From Bacteroidota bacterium (GTDB lineage: Bacteria > Bacteroidota > Bacteroidia > NORP154): a stretch of 64,000 nt of DNA. Position 1 is the first letter of the stretch. Every line of letters starts with the position of its first letter. Below are positions 10,560-52,024 of the stretch, in pieces. Below the pieces are notes generated by a model. The model ran no database searches. It had not been told where the DNA came from and worked only from the letters and a program-made list of their open reading frames with translations. Where the stretch lies: NCBI GenBank assembly GCA_043811005.1, contig JBDRNO010000260.1, positions 19,579 through 83,578 of the forward strand, written 5' to 3'. The position numbers were made by a program, and so were the translations under genes.

Positions 10560-10824
10560 TGAACATAATAGAGTAATTTTATTGAAAAACTTTAAATATC
10601 TCCCGCTAAGCATCCGCCAGCTGGCGGACATAGAACGCAATGATTTATATAAAAAGTAATATTATAGCGAACTTTGCGGGCTATGCGGGATAAAACTTTA
10701 AAATGCGAAGCATTGCTCATTAAGATAATTAATTTTATAGGTATTCGCGAATCTTACGATTTCACGATGGGTTTAAGTGCGGTATGCCCAAAGGTATGAG
10801 TAAATTCCGATACAATCAATTAGG

Positions 10825-21081: not shown

Positions 21082-23562
21082 TCAACGCAAAACCACTATC
21101 TTCTTTTGAAACAGAACGCCACGGCTATCCCCGATAGATACTATATATATCCCTTCCTCCCATCCCTTTGTTTTTATCTCGAATTCCCTGGAGTGTAATT
21201 TGTTATTTTGCAAAAACTTTTCGCAAACAATCCTACCGTTAACATCAACTACCTTTAAAACTGATCCGTTCACAAATCCGGCAATACTCGTTGTTTTAAC
21301 AACAAAGCTGTCTGATGCCGGGTTGGGGTATACTGCATAGACCGGGGCAGACCGCCAGCTGGCGGGCGCTTCGGTCTCAGGAATGGCTGAATAGATCGTA
21401 TCCCCTTTCATCGCAAACACATATTCTCCAAGAACTAATGAATCAATAATAATTACTCCAAATTTATCATAAGAATTTCCTGAAATTTTTGTATAATATT
21501 CATATTCATGCCAATTTTCAGAGGTATTCATCCTGTATAGCAATACCATGCTGTCTTCTGTTAAGGAATCGGCAATTAACAGGTGATCAAAGTATGAGCT
21601 TCCACTTTCCCTGCCATCGTAGACTATTTCTGCACTTGCAGAAAAATTATTTGGCAGAATGCCATCTATTTTCCAGTACCTGTTTGGTGAGAGTTTGTAA
21701 ATTGTATTAGTTACTATTGGGTCAGGTGCTGTCCAGTTATGTTCAACCCGGATAAAAGCCGAATCTGTAATTGCATTTACAGTAATTTTAAATCGTGCAT
21801 GACTAAAATTGTCAATCCAGGTAGTATCGATCACCTTTGCTTCACTTGATATTGCATCACTGATTTTACTATTCATATTAAGTGCTGTGAAAACAGGGCT
21901 GAATGGTAATGTAAATGTAAAAGAGGAAGTTGCACCAGACATAATAATTGTTTCCGTTTGCTCGTTCCAGCTAGTATCCATAAAAGTGATCTCAAGAGGT
22001 ACATTATTGTAATATGAAGGCGCTCCTGTTAATTTTTGTTTAACATAAACTGTTACATCATAATAAATGCCATTTGGCGTTATTTGAGTTGAGTTAATTG
22101 AAAAATGAGGAAAGCCGGGGTTGAACACCCAGTTATTAAAAAAATCAGTAAGATCAATGCCAGTGATAGAGGAAAGCTGGTTTCTCAGATCATAGCTGTT
22201 TATATGAGTGAATTGGTTATTTGCCAAAAAAGTGGTTAACCCACTAAAGAACAGTGAATCTCCCAAATACCCTCTTAAGGTATGAACTACATCACCCCCT
22301 TTATCATATACATGGTCGCCATAAGTATATTCATGCGGAATGCCGGAAATAGCCCTGTAGCCATTCTCGGTGATGTGGGCAAGGTGCAGAACCTTTTCGT
22401 GGTTTCTTCTTACTTCTTGCAGATATGTATCCTTATCATACACATCTTCCCAGAATAAAAACTCCGAATAAACGGCAAATCCTTCGTTCAGCCACATGTC
22501 TTCGGCTGTTTCACAGGTTACCATATCTCCCCACCAGTGATGAGAAAGCTCGTGCGCCATGATATCCTCAGCCCACAAGCTTCCATCAGCAAAGCTTCGA
22601 TGATAGGCAATATTAGTAGCATGCTCCATAGCCCCGCCAACAACAGGAACAAGGTTATACCCAATTCTGTCAAATTGATGCGGACCATAATATGTTTCGT
22701 ATACACCTATTGCATCGGTCAGATGCAAAAAGGAATTTTTGAGTTTTGTGGTATCAGAAGGTAAAGCATTTAACATTATTGGAATGGGTCCGTTAATACC
22801 ATTATATGATATATTTACAGTGGCATAGCCGGCAACAGCCACAGAAGCAAGATAAGATGGAATTGTCTGATCCATTTTCCAATGCCATATAATAGTGCTA
22901 TTGGGATTATGGACTGTATCTTGTAATAAGCCATTACAAAAAGCGTTTTTGGAATCTTCAGTAGTAATGAAAAATTCGTGGGTAGACCGTTCTACAAAAT
23001 TGTCAAAGCAAGGAAACCACGCCCTGCCGAAATTATGAGGATTCACTTCAAATCCAACACCAATATTATAGGCATATCCCCCGCTGAAATAAAATCCTCC
23101 TCCGTAAGTAGATGTGTCTATTTGAGGTGTTCCCTCATAATAAACTTTAACACTTGCTGTATCTCCAATATTCATAATGCCTGGAAGCATTGTAACAATC
23201 AAAGTATCATCATAGGAAAAACTTGCTGATTGATTATCCACCTTTATAGAATCAATATTTAATTTTAGCAAATCCAAACTGATAGAATTAATATTATTCA
23301 TTTTAGGGACAAAGGTAATTTCACAATTGCCCTTTATCACTTCATTGGTAAAGTCGGTGATGTCTAAATTGATAGTGTAGTTGAGTATGTCAATGGTATC
23401 GCTGCGACTGTTAGCTTCTTGGGTATCATAAGCGTGACACGGCTTAGAGCCGTGCCACGCTTTGTGTCTGCAACTGTAATAATTCTCCTGCCTGGCAAAA
23501 GCGAAGACAAAAGAAAAAATTAGTGTAAGGATGGTAAATGTATATAAGAATCGTAAATGCAT
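21082..23562 (-). CDS. secreted M1-family zinc aminopeptidase with a T9SS C-terminal sorting domain
   Basis: Signal peptide. HELSHHWWG…NEGFA gluzincin motif. C-terminus …PVYAVYPNPASDSFVVK… with a beta-sandwich tail typical of the Por_Secre_tail. Confidence 0.85.
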   Translation of the reverse strand: MHLRFLYTFTILTLIFSFVFAFARQENYYSCRHKAWHGSKPCHAYDTQEANSRSDTIDILNYTINLDITDFTNEVIKGNCEITFVPKMNNINSISLDLLKLNIDSIKVDNQSASFSYDDTLIVTMLPGIMNIGDTASVKVYYEGTPQIDTSTYGGGFYFSGGYAYNIGVGFEVNPHNFGRAWFPCFDNFVERSTHEFFITTEDSKNAFCNGLLQDTVHNPNSTIIWHWKMDQTIPSYLASVAVAGYATVNISYNGINGPIPIMLNALPSDTTKLKNSFLHLTDAIGVYETYYGPHQFDRIGYNLVPVVGGAMEHATNIAYHRSFADGSLWAEDIMAHELSHHWWGDMVTCETAEDMWLNEGFAVYSEFLFWEDVYDKDTYLQEVRRNHEKVLHLAHITENGYRAISGIPHEYTYGDHVYDKGGDVVHTLRGYLGDSLFFSGLTTFLANNQFTHINSYDLRNQLSSITGIDLTDFFNNWVFNPGFPHFSINSTQITPNGIYYDVTVYVKQKLTGAPSYYNNVPLEITFMDTSWNEQTETIIMSGATSSFTFTLPFSPVFTALNMNSKISDAISSEAKVIDTTWIDNFSHARFKITVNAITDSAFIRVEHNWTAPDPIVTNTIYKLSPNRYWKIDGILPNNFSASAEIVYDGRESGSSYFDHLLIADSLTEDSMVLLYRMNTSENWHEYEYYTKISGNSYDKFGVIIIDSLVLGEYVFAMKGDTIYSAIPETEAPASWRSAPVYAVYPNPASDSFVVKTTSIAGFVNGSVLKVVDVNGRIVCEKFLQNNKLHSREFEIKTKGWEEGIYIVSIGDSRGVLFQKKIVVLR

Positions 23563-24323: not shown

Positions 24324-24467
24324 TCAGCGTAGCACGGTTTAAAACCGTATCACGCATACAAAATTCATTTATGAATTTTAATGCAATTTGCATATTTTTC
24401 TTAATAAATTTATCTATTATGAGTTTATGTTTTATTATACAATAAATTTGCTCCTTAATATAAAATA

Positions 24468-26366
24468 ATGGAATTAATCTTTAAAAAATCTTGTTTAATA
24501 TTATTTTTGCTATTTGTATTTTTTTATGAACAAATTAGCGCTCAGCAATCTTTTTCATTAAAGATAACACCTTCCATTGCTGACGAACATTGCGATATCC
24601 TCAAAAGCATCCCCTATAATAATAAATTCCCAAACGAGCAGGCACGGAACAAAGAGCTTCGAAATTTCCTGTACAAACTATACGATAATGGCTATATAGC
24701 CGCCTACTTCGATAGTTTGACAGAGGATTCTGTTATTGATCCTTTTTTGAATGCTGAGTCACGCCTGCGTGCCGAAACATTAGACAGCCTGTACTTTAGC
24801 GTGCAGTCACGTGACTCCGCCTTCAAAGTATCGTCAATGCTTATAGCATACATCAATCCTGGTGGCATTTATAAATGGGCAACCATCAAGCCCGGTAATG
24901 TTGATGAAGGCATATTGAGCAAGGTGGGATTCCGCGAAAAACTATATAGCAACAAACCGATCAATTATAAGGAGGTGCGAAAACTCCACGAAAAGCTGCT
25001 GACATATTGCGAGAACAACGGCTATCCTTTTGCCTGGGTTAAGCTTGATAGTGTTAAGTTTTCAGATACTTTATTAGAAGAAAGCGTGACACTGTTTAAA
25101 ACCGTGCCACGCTTGAACTTAATTGAAGCACAATTAAACCTCGCAAAAAATATTGAGGTTCATATTGACAGCATCATCATAAAAGGTGATGCGAAAATAA
25201 CACCTGTTTATATCTACAACCACCTCGGCATAAAACCCGGCGACCTGTATGATGAATCCTTGGTAAGCAAGATAGGACCGAAATTAGAAGAGTTACCTTT
25301 TGTAAAACAAACCAAACCGTTTAAAGTTGTATTTACTGAAAAAGATACAAAAATAATCCTCCTTCTCACCGACAAGAAAGCGAGTATATTTAACGGAATA
25401 CTTGGTGTTTTGCCCAACAGCGAAACCACTGGAAAGCTGCTGATCACCGGGGAAGCCCGTTTAAAGCTATTAAGCTCTTTAGGGCGTGGCGAGCTTATTG
25501 ATATTGACTGGAGAAGCCTTCAGCCAAAAACTCAAGACCTAAAAGCCAGGTTTGTATATCCTTTTATACTATCATCACCTTTTGGTGTTGATCTTAAACT
25601 AAAGCTGTATAAAAAAGACACTCTATATTTGGATTTACATAAGTATCTCGGCATTCAATACCTGCTGAGCGGCACCAATTACCTCCAAGTATTCATCAAT
25701 AACAAAACCACCAGTTTATTAGCTAAGAATACAACTGTTTTGCCTTATGCAAACGTAAATACTATTATATACGGACTCGGATATAAAAATGAACGGTTAG
25801 ACTACCGCCTTAATCCTACAAAGGGATATCAACTCAACATAAATGCCGGTGCGGGAAACAAGACAATTCAAGAGACCAAGGATATAAATCCTGACAGTGT
25901 AGTACTTAAATCAACCGAATACGATCTTGACATTGATTTTGATTTATTCATGCCAATAAAAAACAGGGGGGTAGCGAATTTTGGAATAAAAGCAGCTTAT
26001 TTATCGAGTAAGTCCATCTTTGAAAATGAGCTGTTCCGCATGGGAGGAATAAGCACATTGAGGGGTTTTGATGAAGAATCCATGCTTGCTTCTGCCTATG
26101 CAGTATTTACTTTGGAGTATCGATATTTATTAGAGCAGAACTCTTATCTGTACTTGTTTTTTGACGGAGCGTATTATGAAAATGAATACAGAAGGATCAA
26201 TAATCTTGGGAATTGGCTTGATAGACCGTTTGGCTTTGGTGCAGGCATCAGTTTTGAGACAAAGGCGGGAATATTTTCAATAAATTATGCTCTTGGAAAA
26301 CAATTAGAAAACCCGATAATGCTAAAATCGGCTAAAATTCATTTTGGAATTGTTAACCACTTTTAA
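24468..26366 (+). CDS. Omp85/BamA-family outer-membrane beta-barrel protein (surface antigen D15 domain)
   Basis: Signal peptide. C-terminal beta-barrel pattern ending …IHFGIVNHF, with terminal aromatic residue. Confidence 0.6.
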   Translation: MELIFKKSCLILFLLFVFFYEQISAQQSFSLKITPSIADEHCDILKSIPYNNKFPNEQARNKELRNFLYKLYDNGYIAAYFDSLTEDSVIDPFLNAESRLRAETLDSLYFSVQSRDSAFKVSSMLIAYINPGGIYKWATIKPGNVDEGILSKVGFREKLYSNKPINYKEVRKLHEKLLTYCENNGYPFAWVKLDSVKFSDTLLEESVTLFKTVPRLNLIEAQLNLAKNIEVHIDSIIIKGDAKITPVYIYNHLGIKPGDLYDESLVSKIGPKLEELPFVKQTKPFKVVFTEKDTKIILLLTDKKASIFNGILGVLPNSETTGKLLITGEARLKLLSSLGRGELIDIDWRSLQPKTQDLKARFVYPFILSSPFGVDLKLKLYKKDTLYLDLHKYLGIQYLLSGTNYLQVFINNKTTSLLAKNTTVLPYANVNTIIYGLGYKNERLDYRLNPTKGYQLNINAGAGNKTIQETKDINPDSVVLKSTEYDLDIDFDLFMPIKNRGVANFGIKAAYLSSKSIFENELFRMGGISTLRGFDEESMLASAYAVFTLEYRYLLEQNSYLYLFFDGAYYENEYRRINNLGNWLDRPFGFGAGISFETKAGIFSINYALGKQLENPIMLKSAKIHFGIVNHF

Positions 26367-30121: not shown

Positions 30122-31453
30122 TTAAATGCAAACTTTAATAATATGTCTTACCCTTTCCCTCAGAATCAAATTTAATTCTGTTTGTTGCCTTCCATGAATT
30201 GAGGGATGACCATATAATGATTTCCGCATGTCAGCCATCCCATTAAATCCGGCAGACCTTTCCATAGCGTTTTTTAATCCGTCCCTGGCTGAAAAACGTT
30301 CCTGTGATATCATATAAAAAATACCCTTTTCGTGAAGAAGATCAGCGAGGTATTCCTGTTCAGTCTGTCCGGGGGTTGGAACAAATATTGCCTTTTTCCC
30401 AAGAACCGCCAGGTCCATTATTGTTGAGTAACCGGGTCTGCTCAATACCAATTTTGAAGAAAGAATTGCCTCCCGCATTTTGCTGGTTTCAAGATGGTGA
30501 TAAATTTCAATTCCAGCCCCACGAGCCCACTCGCTGCCCCCCTGAGTACTTGTAAAAGTGGGATTCTTGCGCTCTGGAACTTCCTCCCCTTCGGATTTTT
30601 TTTCAGCGGACGCTGTGGATGCCTTCAGCGGAGGGACTCCCCTCCCTTCGGGAGGGGCCGGGGGTGGGCTGTTGCTTTCTTCGGTTACTCCCCTGACCAT
30701 AAGAACTTTTAAGGATGCACTTTCCAATTGTTTCATCACAATTATTTCAAATATGCTTCGTTGTGGTTCAGGCCCTGAAACTATCACCATCAGATCGTAT
30801 TTATAATTACCCATAGACAAATCCTGCCCTTTCAGTGAAGGAGGATTTTTGTCGAGGTTATTATCAAAAAAATCAAATCTTGAAAGCGGACCAATATAAA
30901 ATGCATTATCCGGTAAAGGATATCCATGTGCCAGGTCTCCTGAAAGATTTTCACTTCCCTGGAAATCCGGCACCCAACATTCATTGTATTTATTGATAAA
31001 GAAGCGGCTTATACGGTGGAGGATCGGTTCAAGGAATTTCAAATTCTCCGGGCATTTCACCATTACCTGGTGAGTTATGAAAACAGAGTGTACGGTTTTG
31101 TTCCATAAACCAAATCTGTTGTCGGAGATGACAGCATCAATATTGTATTTTTTAATTATGGATTTTAATAAGGTGTGTTCTTTGTAAATCCCATGAAAAA
31201 TTTTGGGCAATGACATCATCATTTTCCGTTCCATACTGCTATTACTGGGATATGATATGCTGTAGCCGGGAAATTTAATGAACTCTAATTGAGGAAATTC
31301 TTTCTTTAAAAGTGCCAATGGCCGTTTGTCTGCACCTATAACTACTTCAACTTCGCTGTTGATCAATTCTTTTATTACCGGGATGCAGCGTGTTGCATGT
31401 CCCAATCCCCAATCCAATGGGCAGACCAGTATGCGTTTTTTGGTTTTACTCAT
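30122..31453 (-). CDS. MurG-like GT-B glycosyltransferase (GT28/UDP-glycosyltransferase-like) carrying a ~45-60-aa GC-rich in-frame insertion
   Basis: N-terminal …LVCPLDWGLGHATRCIPVIKEL… and the C-terminal nucleotide-sugar-binding region match GT28/GT1. The middle segment …TEESNSPPPAPPEGRGVPPLKASTASAEKK… is encoded by an atypically GC-rich hairpin-rich stretch. Confidence 0.7.
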   Translation of the reverse strand: MSKTKKRILVCPLDWGLGHATRCIPVIKELINSEVEVVIGADKRPLALLKKEFPQLEFIKFPGYSISYPSNSSMERKMMMSLPKIFHGIYKEHTLLKSIIKKYNIDAVISDNRFGLWNKTVHSVFITHQVMVKCPENLKFLEPILHRISRFFINKYNECWVPDFQGSENLSGDLAHGYPLPDNAFYIGPLSRFDFFDNNLDKNPPSLKGQDLSMGNYKYDLMVIVSGPEPQRSIFEIIVMKQLESASLKVLMVRGVTEESNSPPPAPPEGRGVPPLKASTASAEKKSEGEEVPERKNPTFTSTQGGSEWARGAGIEIYHHLETSKMREAILSSKLVLSRPGYSTIMDLAVLGKKAIFVPTPGQTEQEYLADLLHEKGIFYMISQERFSARDGLKNAMERSAGFNGMADMRKSLYGHPSIHGRQQTELNLILRERVRHIIKVCI

Positions 31454-31698
31454 ATAGAGGGGTAATTATAGTTTGTTTATTAAGTCGGTTATTTACCTCA
31501 CCCCCTGCCCCTCTCCTAAAAACAGTAGAGGGGAGAGCCAACGTGCAGGCTCTCCTCCGCCAGCTGGCGGAGAGATACAGAGGGAGTGAAAAATCTTAGC
31601 AATAAAATATCTTGTCTATTCTTTTGATTTTTCACGACTTAATACAAATACATTAAACTAAACGCGATGAAAGGGCATTTATTTCGACATTTTGCAAT

Positions 31699-31863
31699 TC
31701 AAATAACCTCTTGATGGGAACAGCCGTCTTTGAATCTACAGCCTATACAGACTGAACTGCTATTATTACCGGATCTTTCTTTTTTGATATTTTTTACCAG
31801 TTTATAAACAACATATATTACCGCTGCAATGACTATCACTAATGTTATAATTTCCTGAGTCAT
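31699..31863 (-). CDS. FeoB-associated Cys-rich small membrane protein (54 aa)
   Basis: Not in the ORF track. Manual translation gives MTQEIITLVIVIAAVIYVVYKLVKNIKKERSGNNSSSVCIGCRFKDGCSHQEVI: N-terminal TM helix, basic stretch and Cys-rich tail. Located 3' of feoB, as this family typically is. Confidence 0.5.
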   Translation of the reverse strand: MTQEIITLVIVIAAVIYVVYKLVKNIKKERSGNNSSSVCIGCRFKDGCSHQEVI

Positions 31864-31963: not shown

Positions 31964-32134
31964 AAATACATTTTACCAATATGATACAAGTCGGCAGTCT
32001 TCAGTCGGCAATCAGAAGTCTACAGTAAGAATTTTTTTTGCCGACTGGGGACTGCCGACTGTAGACTTGTCTATTAACACCAACAAAATTATCGTCCGCC
32101 AGCTGGCGGATGGTAAGTTTGCTTTTTAAAGAGC

Positions 32135-36966: not shown

Positions 36967-39900
36967 AAACAGGAAACAGGAAACAGGATCATAAATACCT
37001 ATAATATCAGCAACTTCAAAACTATCTGTTACGGTGCACCCCAAAGAATCTTCAATTACTACAATATAAGTGCCCCCAGTGATGCTGTCTAAATCTTCTG
37101 ATGTTGCACTATTTGACCATGAAAAAGTATAAGGGGGTGTTCCTCCTGTAACAGTTAAGTCAATTGCACCGTTACCTATAGAAGAAGAATCATCAGTTAC
37201 ATTTACCGAAAGTGAAATAGAACCGGGTTGGGTGATGGTTGCGCTGTCAATTGAAATACATTCCTTTGAATCTGTAACGGTTATTGTATATGTGTCTGCT
37301 ACGAGTTCTGTAACATTTTGTGTTGTTTCACCGGTTGACCATAAATAACTATAAGGCATTGTCCCTCCGCTTGTTGTGACTGTAGCGGAACCATCATTTT
37401 CTCCGAAACAACTAACATTTGAAACATCTGTCAAGAGTGATATTAAATCGGGCTGGATAACAGTTGCGCCTGTTATGGAAACACACCCGCTTGAATCAGT
37501 TACGGTAATATCATAAGTTCCTGGAGCTAAGCCGGTAATGTTTTGAGTTGTATCTCCATTAGACCAGTTATATGTAAAGGGACTTGTTCCTCCGGAAACC
37601 GTTAAGTTAATTGCACCGTCATTATCCCCATAACAGCTTACATCAGAAGTAACAGCAGTTAAAGAAGCAGCGTCAATATTGTTTATCAAAACCGTGTCTG
37701 TTTGAGTGTATCCCATGTTATCAGTAACTGAAACAAGATAAATTCCAGCTGTTAGCCCTGTAGCAGTTGCCGATGTTTGGTTTGACGGGTCATCCCATTG
37801 ATAGGAATATGGCGGTATTCCGTCTGTTACGATAACGGTTGCACTTCCGTCATTACCGGAACAGGTAGCATCTGTTGAGAATATGGATAATATCATAGGT
37901 ATGTTCTGAACGATATTAACTTCAAAATCATCAAAATAAAATCCGTCTTCCCTAAGGTACAGATCACTAACTATCCGGAATTTAATCAATATGCTTTGCC
38001 CTGCATAATCATCAAGATCTATCTCTTCCAAAACCCATGATGTTTGAAACCCGTCATAAAGGGGCTTTCCCTGGTCCTGGTTGCTGTTTCCTGTTGTAGT
38101 GTATTTGCCGCAAAGGGGTGTCCATGTGCTTCCCCCATCTGCTGATGCTAAAACCTGGGCGTAATCATATCCCAGTTCTATTTCCCATCTCGCCCAATAC
38201 GAAAGCCGGGCAGTTAAAGCATCGGTCAGATCAATGGGAGTGGATAAGGTAATGGAAGTACTTGAGCTATTCGAATAGTTACCTGAAGGGGAATCGGTTA
38301 TTGAACCGGAAGAGGTGTAGTATATAGAATTACTAACTCCCCACCCGGATGTTGATGTCCAATTCGTCATGGTATTGCAATTGTCGGTAAGGATAGTGCT
38401 GATCTGCCCGTATGTGTTAGTAATTGTGTCGGTATAGGTAAACAGCCCATTATCTACAGCGAGGACAAAACTAAATTGCTGTCCGTTTTGAATACTGGTA
38501 TCCAGTGAGAAAGAAATAGAGTCGTACATTTCCTCCAAAAGGGTTAAAAACGGATATGATTTGGGGCTTCCAACGCTTGTAATTTCAGTTCCCAGGGGTT
38601 GAATTTCAACGGTAAAGGTTGCCGGGCTGTCTAATCCCAGCCGTTGTATCTTAAAATTGAAATAATCGTTTTGCTGGTTGAAGATTGAAGGAGACAAGTC
38701 TTCTACTATTGAGTATTTGCCAACGAGGTGTGCAGCTGCTAAATTCTGCCACATATTGTCTTTGCATAAATCTATGATAGCAGAAGAAGGAGGCCAAAAG
38801 CCATAATTATCCGGTCCTGCTTCGGGTGTCATGGATATGATCTTATTTTTGGTGAATTGTTCTCCGTACATCCAATCATCAGTATCTCCGTTGGTGACAT
38901 ATCCTACTGTTTGGTCTCCTGTTCCAAAGATATAATCATTATCACGGGTCATGAGCCGGGCATAACTGAAAAAGATAGCAGAATCAGGAGTGAAGATGGA
39001 TTGCTCATAACCCCAGGGATATATCAACATATTGCTGTAAGTATGGTAGTTTAATGTTATCAGGATCTCATGGCTTTCACAAAATTCTCTTATAATATCG
39101 GTTTCCGGTTCTGAGAAAGGCCCCGTGCCTCTGTATGTCTCGTCATTTGTGTTTGGAGAAGACCCATCGTTATCATACCCCCACATATAGCCGTAGTTAC
39201 GGTTGAGGTCAACTCCGAAAGTGCCGTCACCGTTATTTCTCCTGTTTTTGCGCCACATACCGCCACCACTTGGGTTGGTGGTCCAGTTGTAGATATATCC
39301 GTCAGGGTTGATACAGGGGATGAAATACATTTCGGTGTTATCAACCAGATTGGTTACTTCATCGTCAGTGGCGTAGTTTTCCAGCAGGTAATACATATAA
39401 AATATCATCTGAGATATTGATGCGGGCTCCCTTGCGTGATGAAGTGCCGTGTAAAGCACCTCGGGTTCCGGTTCATTAATGGAGGGATTGTCTGATATTT
39501 TGACCCAGTAGATGGGTCTTCCTTCGATGGTGGTATTTGTTCCGATCTGTTGCCTAACGGTTATAATGGTTGGAAATTTGTATGCCATTGAGTCCAAATG
39601 GTCCAGCATCTCCTGGTAAGTGAAATATCCCCCCATTGATCCGAGGGTAAAGTTATCAGGAACAGGATAATCAACGCCAGAAGAGCAGCCATCTGAAAAA
39701 CGTTTTTTTTTTGAAGATTTTTTATTGGTTGGCTCTCCCTCTCCGCCATCTGGCGTAAGGTCAGGGGTTGTGCTTGTGTCGTTCTGTCTTTGGTAATGCT
39801 CTACTACGTCATCAATCAGGACATCATACTTAAAACCGTTTGATTTGATAAGCTCTATCTCTTTATATGAAAAGTCAGATATAAAGAAAACACCTTTTTT

Positions 39901-51947: not shown

Positions 51948-52024
51948 CTAGAATAAGGTCATTAAAAAAGTCGTTAATGATAATTTTGTTGATGTAAATA
52001 AACAAGTAGGCAGTTGGCAGTCGG

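Follow-up and report, generated by a model that had tools for sequence, protein, structure and literature searches.

How did a block of GC-rich DNA come to be read in frame within an AT-rich glycosyltransferase gene? This question is raised by a stretch of 64,000 nucleotides from a Bacteroidota metagenome-assembled genome (MAG; assembly GCA_043811005.1, contig JBDRNO010000260.1, positions 19,579 to 83,578 of the forward strand), which is called the window in the following and is numbered from its first letter. The gene is located at 30122-31453 on the minus strand. A first inspection of the letters, referred to here as the original prediction, had proposed that a structured GC-rich repeat element was inserted in frame into this coding sequence, and the analysis described here supports this proposal. 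The block is probably a decayed non-autonomous element resembling REPINs (hairpin-forming doublets of repetitive extragenic palindromes, REPs) or MITEs (miniature transposable elements with inverted repeats), which was fixed in frame in a permissive loop of a functional GT-B glycosyltransferase. This reading is favored because the insert is absent from 16 homologues, its composition is foreign to the gene, it matches a repeat family with 55 bits, its parts follow the order of the dimers of that family, and the gene is intact.

A lineage-specific GC-rich segment in the host gene

The lineage-specific segment comprises 164 nt on the minus strand (30512-30675) and encodes residues ~260-314 of the protein (SNSPPPAPPEGRGVPPLKASTASAEKKSEGEEVPERKNPTFTSTQGGSEWARGAG). 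Its GC content is 62%, compared to 38.7% in the rest of the gene, a gap of 23 points, and the 80-nt GC maximum of the entire 64-kb window (0.6875; window mean 0.363, standard deviation 0.075) is found at 30604. The GC-rich block in an AT-rich gene, the encoded peptide and the preserved frame had all been described correctly in the original prediction, as was confirmed by the open reading frame (ORF) and the alignment. The extent given there (30568-30700, about 130 nt) had to be revised to 30512-30675 with an element of 147-164 nt, since 56 nt had been missed on the left and 25 nt of conserved gene had been included on the right.

The ends of the segment were set by comparison with the closest relative (locus L001, protein P0002), a 1.5-kb Logan contig whose flanking sequences are 83-87% identical in protein and ~90% identical in DNA. 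The DNA alignment is free of gaps up to 30676 and resumes at 30511, and in between L001 holds 65 unrelated AT-rich nt where the window has 164 nt. Homology of the two inserts was considered and rejected, as 2 of 21 residues are shared in register and the DNA is unalignable. In 16 homologues ~8 residues are found between the strands ...LMVRG and IEIY, compared to 55 residues in the window protein, which agrees with the proposed insertion; the homologues have either these ~8 residues or unrelated sequence at this place, and an equivalent segment of similar sequence was not found among them. The length of the loop differs among homologues, and P0005, P0008 and P0048 carry small inserts. No relative closer than L001 was detected among 5.8 billion proteins or in the metagenomes of the Joint Genome Institute (JGI). 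As a separate observation, the 3' end of the relative's contig (L001:1455-1498) contains GTAGGGACGAGAAGTAGGGACGAGGCATGCCTCGTCCCT, which resembles a GTAG-tagged REP with a partial duplicate; from its appearance, this sister lineage may carry classical REPs.

The host gene encodes an intact protein of 443 amino acids (aa) of the Glyco_tran_28_C / MJ1255-VC2487-like type. It has thousands of homologues with a typical length of 340-390 aa, labeled as TIGR00661 family by JGI. The protein passed the Pfam cut-offs for PF04101 Glyco_tran_28_C (45.7 bits, cut-off 22) and Glyco_trans_1_3 (31.4 bits, cut-off 25), and remained below those of TIGR00661 (51.5 bits, cut-off 195.9) and of the murG equivalog TIGR01133 (35.3 bits, cut-off 250). 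A comparison by sequence profile with the PDB gave no match. An AlphaFold2 model was obtained from a 17-sequence alignment (predicted template modeling score, pTM, 0.81), and its best Foldseek matches were GT1/GT-B UDP-glycosyltransferases (probability 1.0, template modeling score 0.5-0.6). Since the murG and TIGR00661 scores are far under their cut-offs and the structural matches are GT-B/GT1 enzymes, the protein belongs to the MJ1255/VC2487-like group of GT-B enzymes and MurG proper is excluded; the MurG identity assumed before is therefore replaced by that of a TIGR00661/GT28-C-like GT-B enzyme. All family-invariant residues of the homologue alignment are present, and a dN/dS of 0.18 relative to L001 was determined over 389 flanking codons. 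By these sequence comparisons the host gene is judged to be intact and subject to purifying selection.

In the AlphaFold2 model, residues 265-311 have a predicted local distance difference test (pLDDT) value <50, which in part reflects the few sequences aligned there, and are without secondary structure. They sit between strands 250-253 and 315-318 (C-beta2 and C-beta3) of the C-terminal Rossmann domain, so that alignment and model both place the insertion in a loop between two beta strands. Because the ORF is intact, the invariant residues are kept, dN/dS is 0.18 and pLDDT is <50, the segment is very likely a tolerated, translated surface loop with predicted disorder, in line with the original suggestion. 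The open frame through the block is weak evidence on its own, because one frame of the plus strand is also free of stops and the other four contain a single stop each.

Two further lineage-specific insertions were observed in the same protein, at residues 196-214 (30812-30868) and ~404-421 (~30190-30243). Both have the usual AT-rich composition, are common to P0002 and are absent from the other aligned homologues; pLDDT is <50 in the first and partly reduced in the second, where it falls below 50 only at residues 419-424.

Internal architecture of the block

Within the segment, the element itself would span 30524-30670 on the plus strand (147 nt, 49 codons) as an inverted dimer with its tails pointing outwards (tails-out), of which the left arm is decayed and the right one intact. 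The right arm is an intact unit of the repeat family described below (30636-30670, plus strand; ACT-CCCCTCCC-TTC-GGGAGGGG-CC-GGGGGTGGG-CT), consisting of a hairpin and a G-tract tail, and was scored at 54.8 and 55.2 bits by the covariance models R1 and R2, respectively. Its core is an 8-bp GC hairpin with a 3-nt loop (30639-30657, plus strand; CCCCTCCC-TTC-GGGAGGGG), for which 0 chance matches are expected. A hairpin with a GGAGGGG arm had been predicted; it exists, at the position given here and not at 30649-30667. The arms of a second predicted hairpin, GGAGGG-ACT-CCCCTCC, were found at 30630-30635 (GGAGGG) and 30640-30645 (CCCTCC), where they form an alternative pairing.

The left arm (30524-30547, plus strand; AGCCCACTCGCTGCCCCCCTGAGT) is a decayed C-form arm lying 113 nt left of the intact unit. 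It aligns to AGCCCACCCCCGGCCCCTCCCGA..GAGT with three substitutions and a deletion of the 3' arm of the hairpin, and its local alignment score of 24 was equalled in 3 of 500 shuffles. The inverted repeat formed by 30524-30540 and 30654-30670 has 17-nt arms that are 82% complementary. Between both arms the 5' half of the unit was detected again as a partial direct copy (30576-30594, plus strand; GGAACTTCCTCCCCTTCGG, then T8), which is 79% identical to 30633-30651 and whose alignment score was attained by 12 of 500 shuffles. The spacer further contains direct repeats in 30602-30632 (plus strand), with TTCAGCGGA at 30602-30610 and 30624-30632 (coding strand TCCGCTGAA). The direct repeats of the original prediction correspond to this pair and to the partial copy.

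The block had also been called hairpin-dense. The folding energy of the whole block was no better than that of dinucleotide shuffles (z = -0.7 for RNA, 0.0 for DNA), and the idea of a hairpin-dense structure was dropped on the basis of these z-scores; the 8-bp hairpin alone is conserved. Rfam gave no matching family for the window region or for 12 loci rich in elements.

A G-quadruplex (G4) motif of four G-runs can be read from the sequence at 30650-30668 on the plus strand, which is the template strand of the gene (GGG A GGGG CC GGGGG T GGG). With G4 energy terms included, the G strand was predicted to fold at -28.2 vs -20.6 kcal/mol (RNA parameters), and the predicted fold consists of the G4, formed by the hairpin 3' arm and the tail, and the upstream GGAGGG/CCCTCC hairpin. 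The hairpin or G4 of the unit might serve as a recognition cue for a single-strand intermediate, which we treat as a lead, not a result.

A family of hairpin units in other genomes

The family was collected with the 19-nt hairpin using one genome per species, which gave at least 120 loci; all family counts in the following are among the matches listed. In 82 of 133 exact-hairpin occurrences, two more G-runs followed after 1-5 nt. The family unit comprises 35 nt, with the 8-bp CCCCTCCC/GGGAGGGG hairpin followed by the GGGGGTGGG tail, and has the consensus ...aaaCU-CCCCUCCC-UUC-GGGAGGGG-uU-GGGGGUGGG-UU. The covariance model R1, built from the 82 tailed units, detected 100 copies in Bacteroidota (39 loci), and half of these copies have a different loop or a shortened stem. 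Pairing of the stem is kept in 99.4% of cells over these copies, with free variation in the loops. A regular expression for the composite unit gave 145 matches in the loci vs 0 in shuffled loci.

The identity of positions 30635-30670 to stretches of 30-34 nt elsewhere is 94-100%, and up to 32 nt are matched at 100% (L095, L099). Such near-identical stretches come from Prevotellaceae MAGs, from two isolates (Segatella maculosa and Flaviaesturariibacter aridisoli), from a MAG of Flavobacterium and from a groundwater MAG of Bacteroidetes. The near-identical unit thus spans Prevotellaceae (rumen and oral, isolates included), Flavobacteriia and Chitinophagaceae, and in the isolate Prevotella veroralis the spacer of the unit is TT, the commoner variant. 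In MAGs of Planctomycetota, Chloroflexota and Pseudomonadota, identical hairpins are followed by lineage-specific tails (GGGGGAGGGTGC, AGGGGAGGGTGC, AGGGGCGGGCAATCC). Some of the hairpin matches are ordinary terminators of a tail-less, terminator-like class, for example a syntenic Streptomyces site.

The occurrence in genomes of cultured isolates bears on the concern that the block is a chimera or other artefact of assembly. The contig does come from a MAG, and assembly errors are typical of GC-rich repeats. Nevertheless, the frame is kept in an otherwise collinear gene, and a decayed arm with internal repeats is unlike the joining of a foreign read, which together with the isolate genomes renders an artefact extremely unlikely.

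Pairs of units in Bacteroidota separated by less than 300 nt were exclusively arranged tails-out ('-+' 19, '+-' 0). The C-form is located on the left and the G-form on the right, 55-200 nt apart, typically as ACCCACCCCCaaCCCCTCCCgaaGGGAGGGGagcttaa ... taatcagactCCCCTCCCttcGGGAGGGGttGGGGGTGGGT. These dimers are ~45-nt terminal inverted repeats (TIRs), each with its own hairpin, around a variable spacer, and the order of the window block is that of the Bacteroidota dimers. Two variations of this layout were observed. In Pseudomonadota MAGs (L005, L039, L051, L063, L067, L076) the tails-in arrangement prevails ('+-' 11 vs '-+' 2). In Prevotella veroralis DSM 19559 (L075:3210-3735, flanked by ORFs resembling sufD and sufS), ~5.5 tandem repeats of 62 nt, each containing a degenerate unit hairpin, are enclosed by a C-form and a G-form unit, so that a dimer spacer can expand into a tandem array.

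From this architecture, the following course of events is proposed. The element, 147 nt or 49 codons as a whole, would have reached the gene through transposition by a putative enzyme. As the unit is free of stops in six frames, an insertion that kept the frame would be read through, giving a loop between C-beta2 and C-beta3 that is rich in Pro, Gly and Glu and predicted to be disordered. Later decay, in which the left unit has lost the 3' arm of its hairpin, would be constrained by the reading frame alone.

Several observations weigh against a mobile element. The nearest relative has another insert, of 65 nt, at the same site, which indicates a loop intrinsically prone to insertions and deletions. 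The peptide of the insert is without relatives, as an exhaustive phmmer search of 1.84 billion representative proteins gave 0 matches, and two metagenome scans with the conserved flanks recovered no empty site. Neither a target-site duplication nor an evident direct repeat was detected at the junctions of the segment. A second full-length 147-nt copy was not found, and the 64-kb window, the only part of this genome covered, has just two units. As the collecting 19-mer was taken from the window, the model match is circular in its hairpin part; independent of this query are the tail and the flanking CT, the dimer architecture and the second match in the window. An all-vs-all comparison of ORFs within 1.5 kb of the units in 120 loci revealed no recurrent transposase. 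Finally, compensatory changes in the stem amount to just 3 cells. Because almost no compensatory change occurs, the conservation is one of sequence and not demonstrably of structure; by the alignment of its copies, the conserved feature is a sequence that happens to be a hairpin, which is typical of a young or protein-recognised repeat and not of a structure-selected RNA.

Part of this evidence would also fit a local origin, in which slippage or duplication in an indel-prone loop generated the block and its likeness to units elsewhere is a convergence of simple C/G tracts. The loop is variable (the L001 insert and the small inserts in P0005, P0008 and P0048), the block contains direct repeats, the G-run tails visibly slip in other genomes, and the insert peptide is an orphan. 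Convergence would have to account for the 94-100% identity over 30-34 nt, which includes the spacer and the flanking ACT and CT, for 145 composite matches where shuffled loci gave none, for an inverted decayed arm at the expected distance and for a GC content 23 points over that of the gene. We therefore regard a local origin as improbable and retain the reading as a decayed mobile element.

The ORFs that recurred near units were syntenic Streptomyces genes only, beside tail-less terminator-like hairpins, and no autonomous insertion sequence (IS) with matching TIRs was found in the window or the loci. BLAST searches of plasmids with a full Prevotellaceae element and of phages with the window block found none, to which the low-complexity filter may have contributed, and none of 2.9 million viral contigs contains the exact unit. 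Searches of the literature with sequence strings and keywords found no description of the unit, and the repeat family appears to be undescribed. As it is seemingly undescribed and occurs in several phyla, it merits a dedicated survey.

Units within genes

Besides the glycosyltransferase gene, units were found within long ORFs with Pfam domains on either side, encoding a GH31 TIM barrel (L056), a CHU_C sorting domain (L012), SprA (L013) and an RHS protein (L017); an ORF with a CHAT domain (L120) contains two tandem units. Most of the GH31 homologues examined, at 69-78% identity (P0122, P0123, P0146, P0224 and others), lack the unit and ~30 upstream nt, which form an insertion by comparison. A 98% identical protein contains this insertion, P0124 (~77% identity) has it in a decayed yet recognisable form, and one further homologue carries a different insert at the same loop. 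This pattern of insertion, decay and alternative insert is the same as in the glycosyltransferase. In the Bacteroidota loci, 25 of 79 units (32%) lie >=80 aa from both ends of an ORF >=300 aa, vs 55% of random positions, which is a rough proxy. By inspection, the unit is stop-free in all six frames, and units use all frames and both orientations. Intragenic copies are a general habit of the family.

These data also bear on a co-opted role, which would be compatible with a mobile origin: the template-strand hairpin or G4, or a hairpin in the mRNA, would modulate transcription or translation of the glycosyltransferase gene, or the Pro/Glu-rich loop would itself be functional. The perfect preservation of the right unit next to a decayed left arm would fit such a role, as would the four G-runs forming a canonical G4 motif, an upstream GGAGGG that can sequester the C-arm, and a second unit in the 5' region of the gene (see below). 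However, the distribution of units over both orientations, several frames, unrelated genes and intergenic DNA indicates tolerance rather than a gene-specific role, the whole block folds no better than shuffles, and, to judge from their sequences, neither the closest relative nor any other homologue needs the element to function. There is thus little reason to expect co-option here, and a decayed element in a permissive loop remains the preferred reading.

A further-reaching proposal is that the unit defines an undescribed miniature-element family of several phyla, which spreads horizontally, is stop-free in six frames, enters genes almost as readily as intergenic DNA, and is mobilised by an enzyme recognising a hairpin/G4 single-strand intermediate, with the glycosyltransferase insert as one fossil. 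This proposal is put forward tentatively and, in its full extent, is rather unlikely to hold. The combination of a hairpin-plus-G4 design with many intragenic copies nevertheless makes the family a tractable case, which could reveal by what routes selfish DNA gets into coding sequence and stays there, and whether new disordered loops arise from it. For annotation it is relevant that units create Pro/Gly-rich orphan loops and spurious ORFs, lower the scores of family models and are likely sites of assembly breaks.

A second unit upstream of the host gene

A second, diverged unit was detected at 31490-31545 on the minus strand (CUCUCCCCUC, a 14-nt loop, GAGGGG CA GGGGGUGAGG), with a 6-bp stem. 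It was scored at 22 bits by R1 (E 0.003) and 21 bits by R2 (E 0.0003), and coincides with a GC peak and hairpins. It is hairpin module 1 of an intergenic palindromic element (31484-31590), which sits 37-137 nt upstream of the start codon of the glycosyltransferase gene and further on holds a CCGCCAGCTGGCGG palindrome. Within the window, a search for the exact hairpin allowing up to 3 mismatches found no site besides the hairpin itself. The resemblance of the arms of the block to this module had been noted in the original prediction and is borne out by the covariance match (E ~3e-3 to 3e-4). The block had at the same time been taken as a second class of element, which does not hold, as its core shares a unit family with hairpin module 1 and with many other genomes. 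On the strength of these model matches, the intragenic block and intergenic hairpin module 1 are assigned to one unit family, which ties the intragenic and intergenic GC-rich blocks of the window together.

The proximity of the two units allows for another route, in which the block was copied from its intergenic neighbor by template switching or gene conversion instead of transposition. The sole two units in 64 kb are 830 nt apart in opposite orientation, an arrangement with a chance probability of ~3% by our own estimate. With its 55 bits the intragenic unit is far closer to the family consensus than the neighbor, which reaches 21-22 bits with a stem of 6 bp and a loop of 14 nt, and it cannot be a copy of this neighbor in its present form. 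Local copying is thus considered a very improbable source of the block, and arrival by transposition is the route that we prefer.

Comparison with known repeat systems

Intragenic REPs have been catalogued, and some copies within ORFs encode 20-80 extra residues (Di Nocera et al., 2013; PMC3733652). According to the same study, REP units carry a conserved GTAG or CGTC tetranucleotide at one end, and Rickettsia palindromic elements (RPEs) are cited there as 'selfish DNA in protein-coding genes'. The unit described here resembles REPs, REPINs and the interspersed mosaic elements of bacteria (BIMEs) in that it is a short GC-rich stem-loop (8-bp stem, 3-nt loop), in its inverted dimers around a spacer of 20-100+ nt that can fold into a larger structure, and in the occurrence of clusters and partial units. 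It differs from them in several respects. The consensus examined has neither GTAG nor CGTC beside the stem; a conserved G-tract tail forms a G4 motif with the 3' arm of the hairpin; and no gene resembling a REP-associated tyrosine transposase (RAYT) was found within 1.5 kb of the units in 120 loci. Moreover, about a third of the Bacteroidota copies lie deep in genes, whereas REPs are mostly extragenic, and near-identical units occur in several phyla.

RPEs are palindromic repeats of ~100-150 nt that lie in frame in functional genes and are translated, at surface or permissive sites where the host protein stays functional. The window element appears similar in this regard, as it lies in frame in an apparently intact gene and in a predicted disordered loop at a permissive site. 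The two differ in host (Bacteroidota vs Rickettsia) and in design, since RPEs are not known to be built of a hairpin and G-tract unit. To our knowledge the sequence of RPEs is unrelated to the unit, and with the different phylum and the poly-C/G unit, membership is unlikely.

The element shares with MITEs (Correia/NEMIS, RUP, Nezha) a length of 147 nt, a non-coding nature, terminal inverted repeats and decayed copies. It differs in that no target-site duplication or cognate IS was identified for the window element, and in that its TIRs are hairpins in their own right, a feature more akin to REPs. The GC clusters of yeast mitochondria are short GC-rich palindromes in an AT-rich genome, some of them in frame in VAR1. 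They are alike in being GC-rich palindromic inserts in frame in AT-rich DNA, and differ in being organellar and eukaryotic and unrelated in sequence.

In its behavior the element is analogous to RPEs and intragenic REPs, and its architecture matches that of REPIN/BIME dimers. Selfish DNA within genes is a known phenomenon, and the finding itself is modest, with one decayed copy in one gene. It shows that free-living Bacteroidota, too, contain palindromic insertions in genes, for which Rickettsia and a few Proteobacteria and Verrucomicrobia rich in REPs are the best-known hosts.

Other repeats and a small ORF in the window

The perfect 14-nt palindrome CCGCCAGCTGGCGG is present in five exact copies (10614, 21352, 31557, 32096 and 61061; 0.02 expected) and in one copy with 2 mismatches at 39743. 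The copies at 10614, 31557 and 32096 are intergenic, the last one directly after the stop codon of feoB. Those at 21352 and 61061 lie within GC-rich blocks of 100-130 nt inside ORFs, which encode an M1 peptidase with the tail of the type IX secretion system (T9SS), where the block directly precedes the sorting domain, and a protein of 1255 aa with PD40 repeats.

A third small repeat type, GACTGCCGACT, was found in 4 copies vs 0.24 expected, at 31989-32093 and 51979-52022. It forms a 33-nt hairpin pair downstream of feoB and a 44-nt inverted match of 84% to the site 20 kb away, and the copies are flanked by GTAG/CTAC motifs. A 33-nt palindrome, AAGCGTGACACGGyTTArAwCCGTGCCACGCTT (family D5 in the scan for repeats), occurs between genes three times, at 23430-23462, 24325-24357 and 25082-25114.

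Between feoB and the glycosyltransferase gene, a small ORF on the minus strand (31698-31862) encodes MTQEIITLVIVIAAVIYVVYKLVKNIKKERSGNNSSSVCIGCRFKDGCSHQEVI, with a hydrophobic N-terminus and a Cys-rich tail, which we take to resemble the FeoB-associated Cys-rich membrane peptides.

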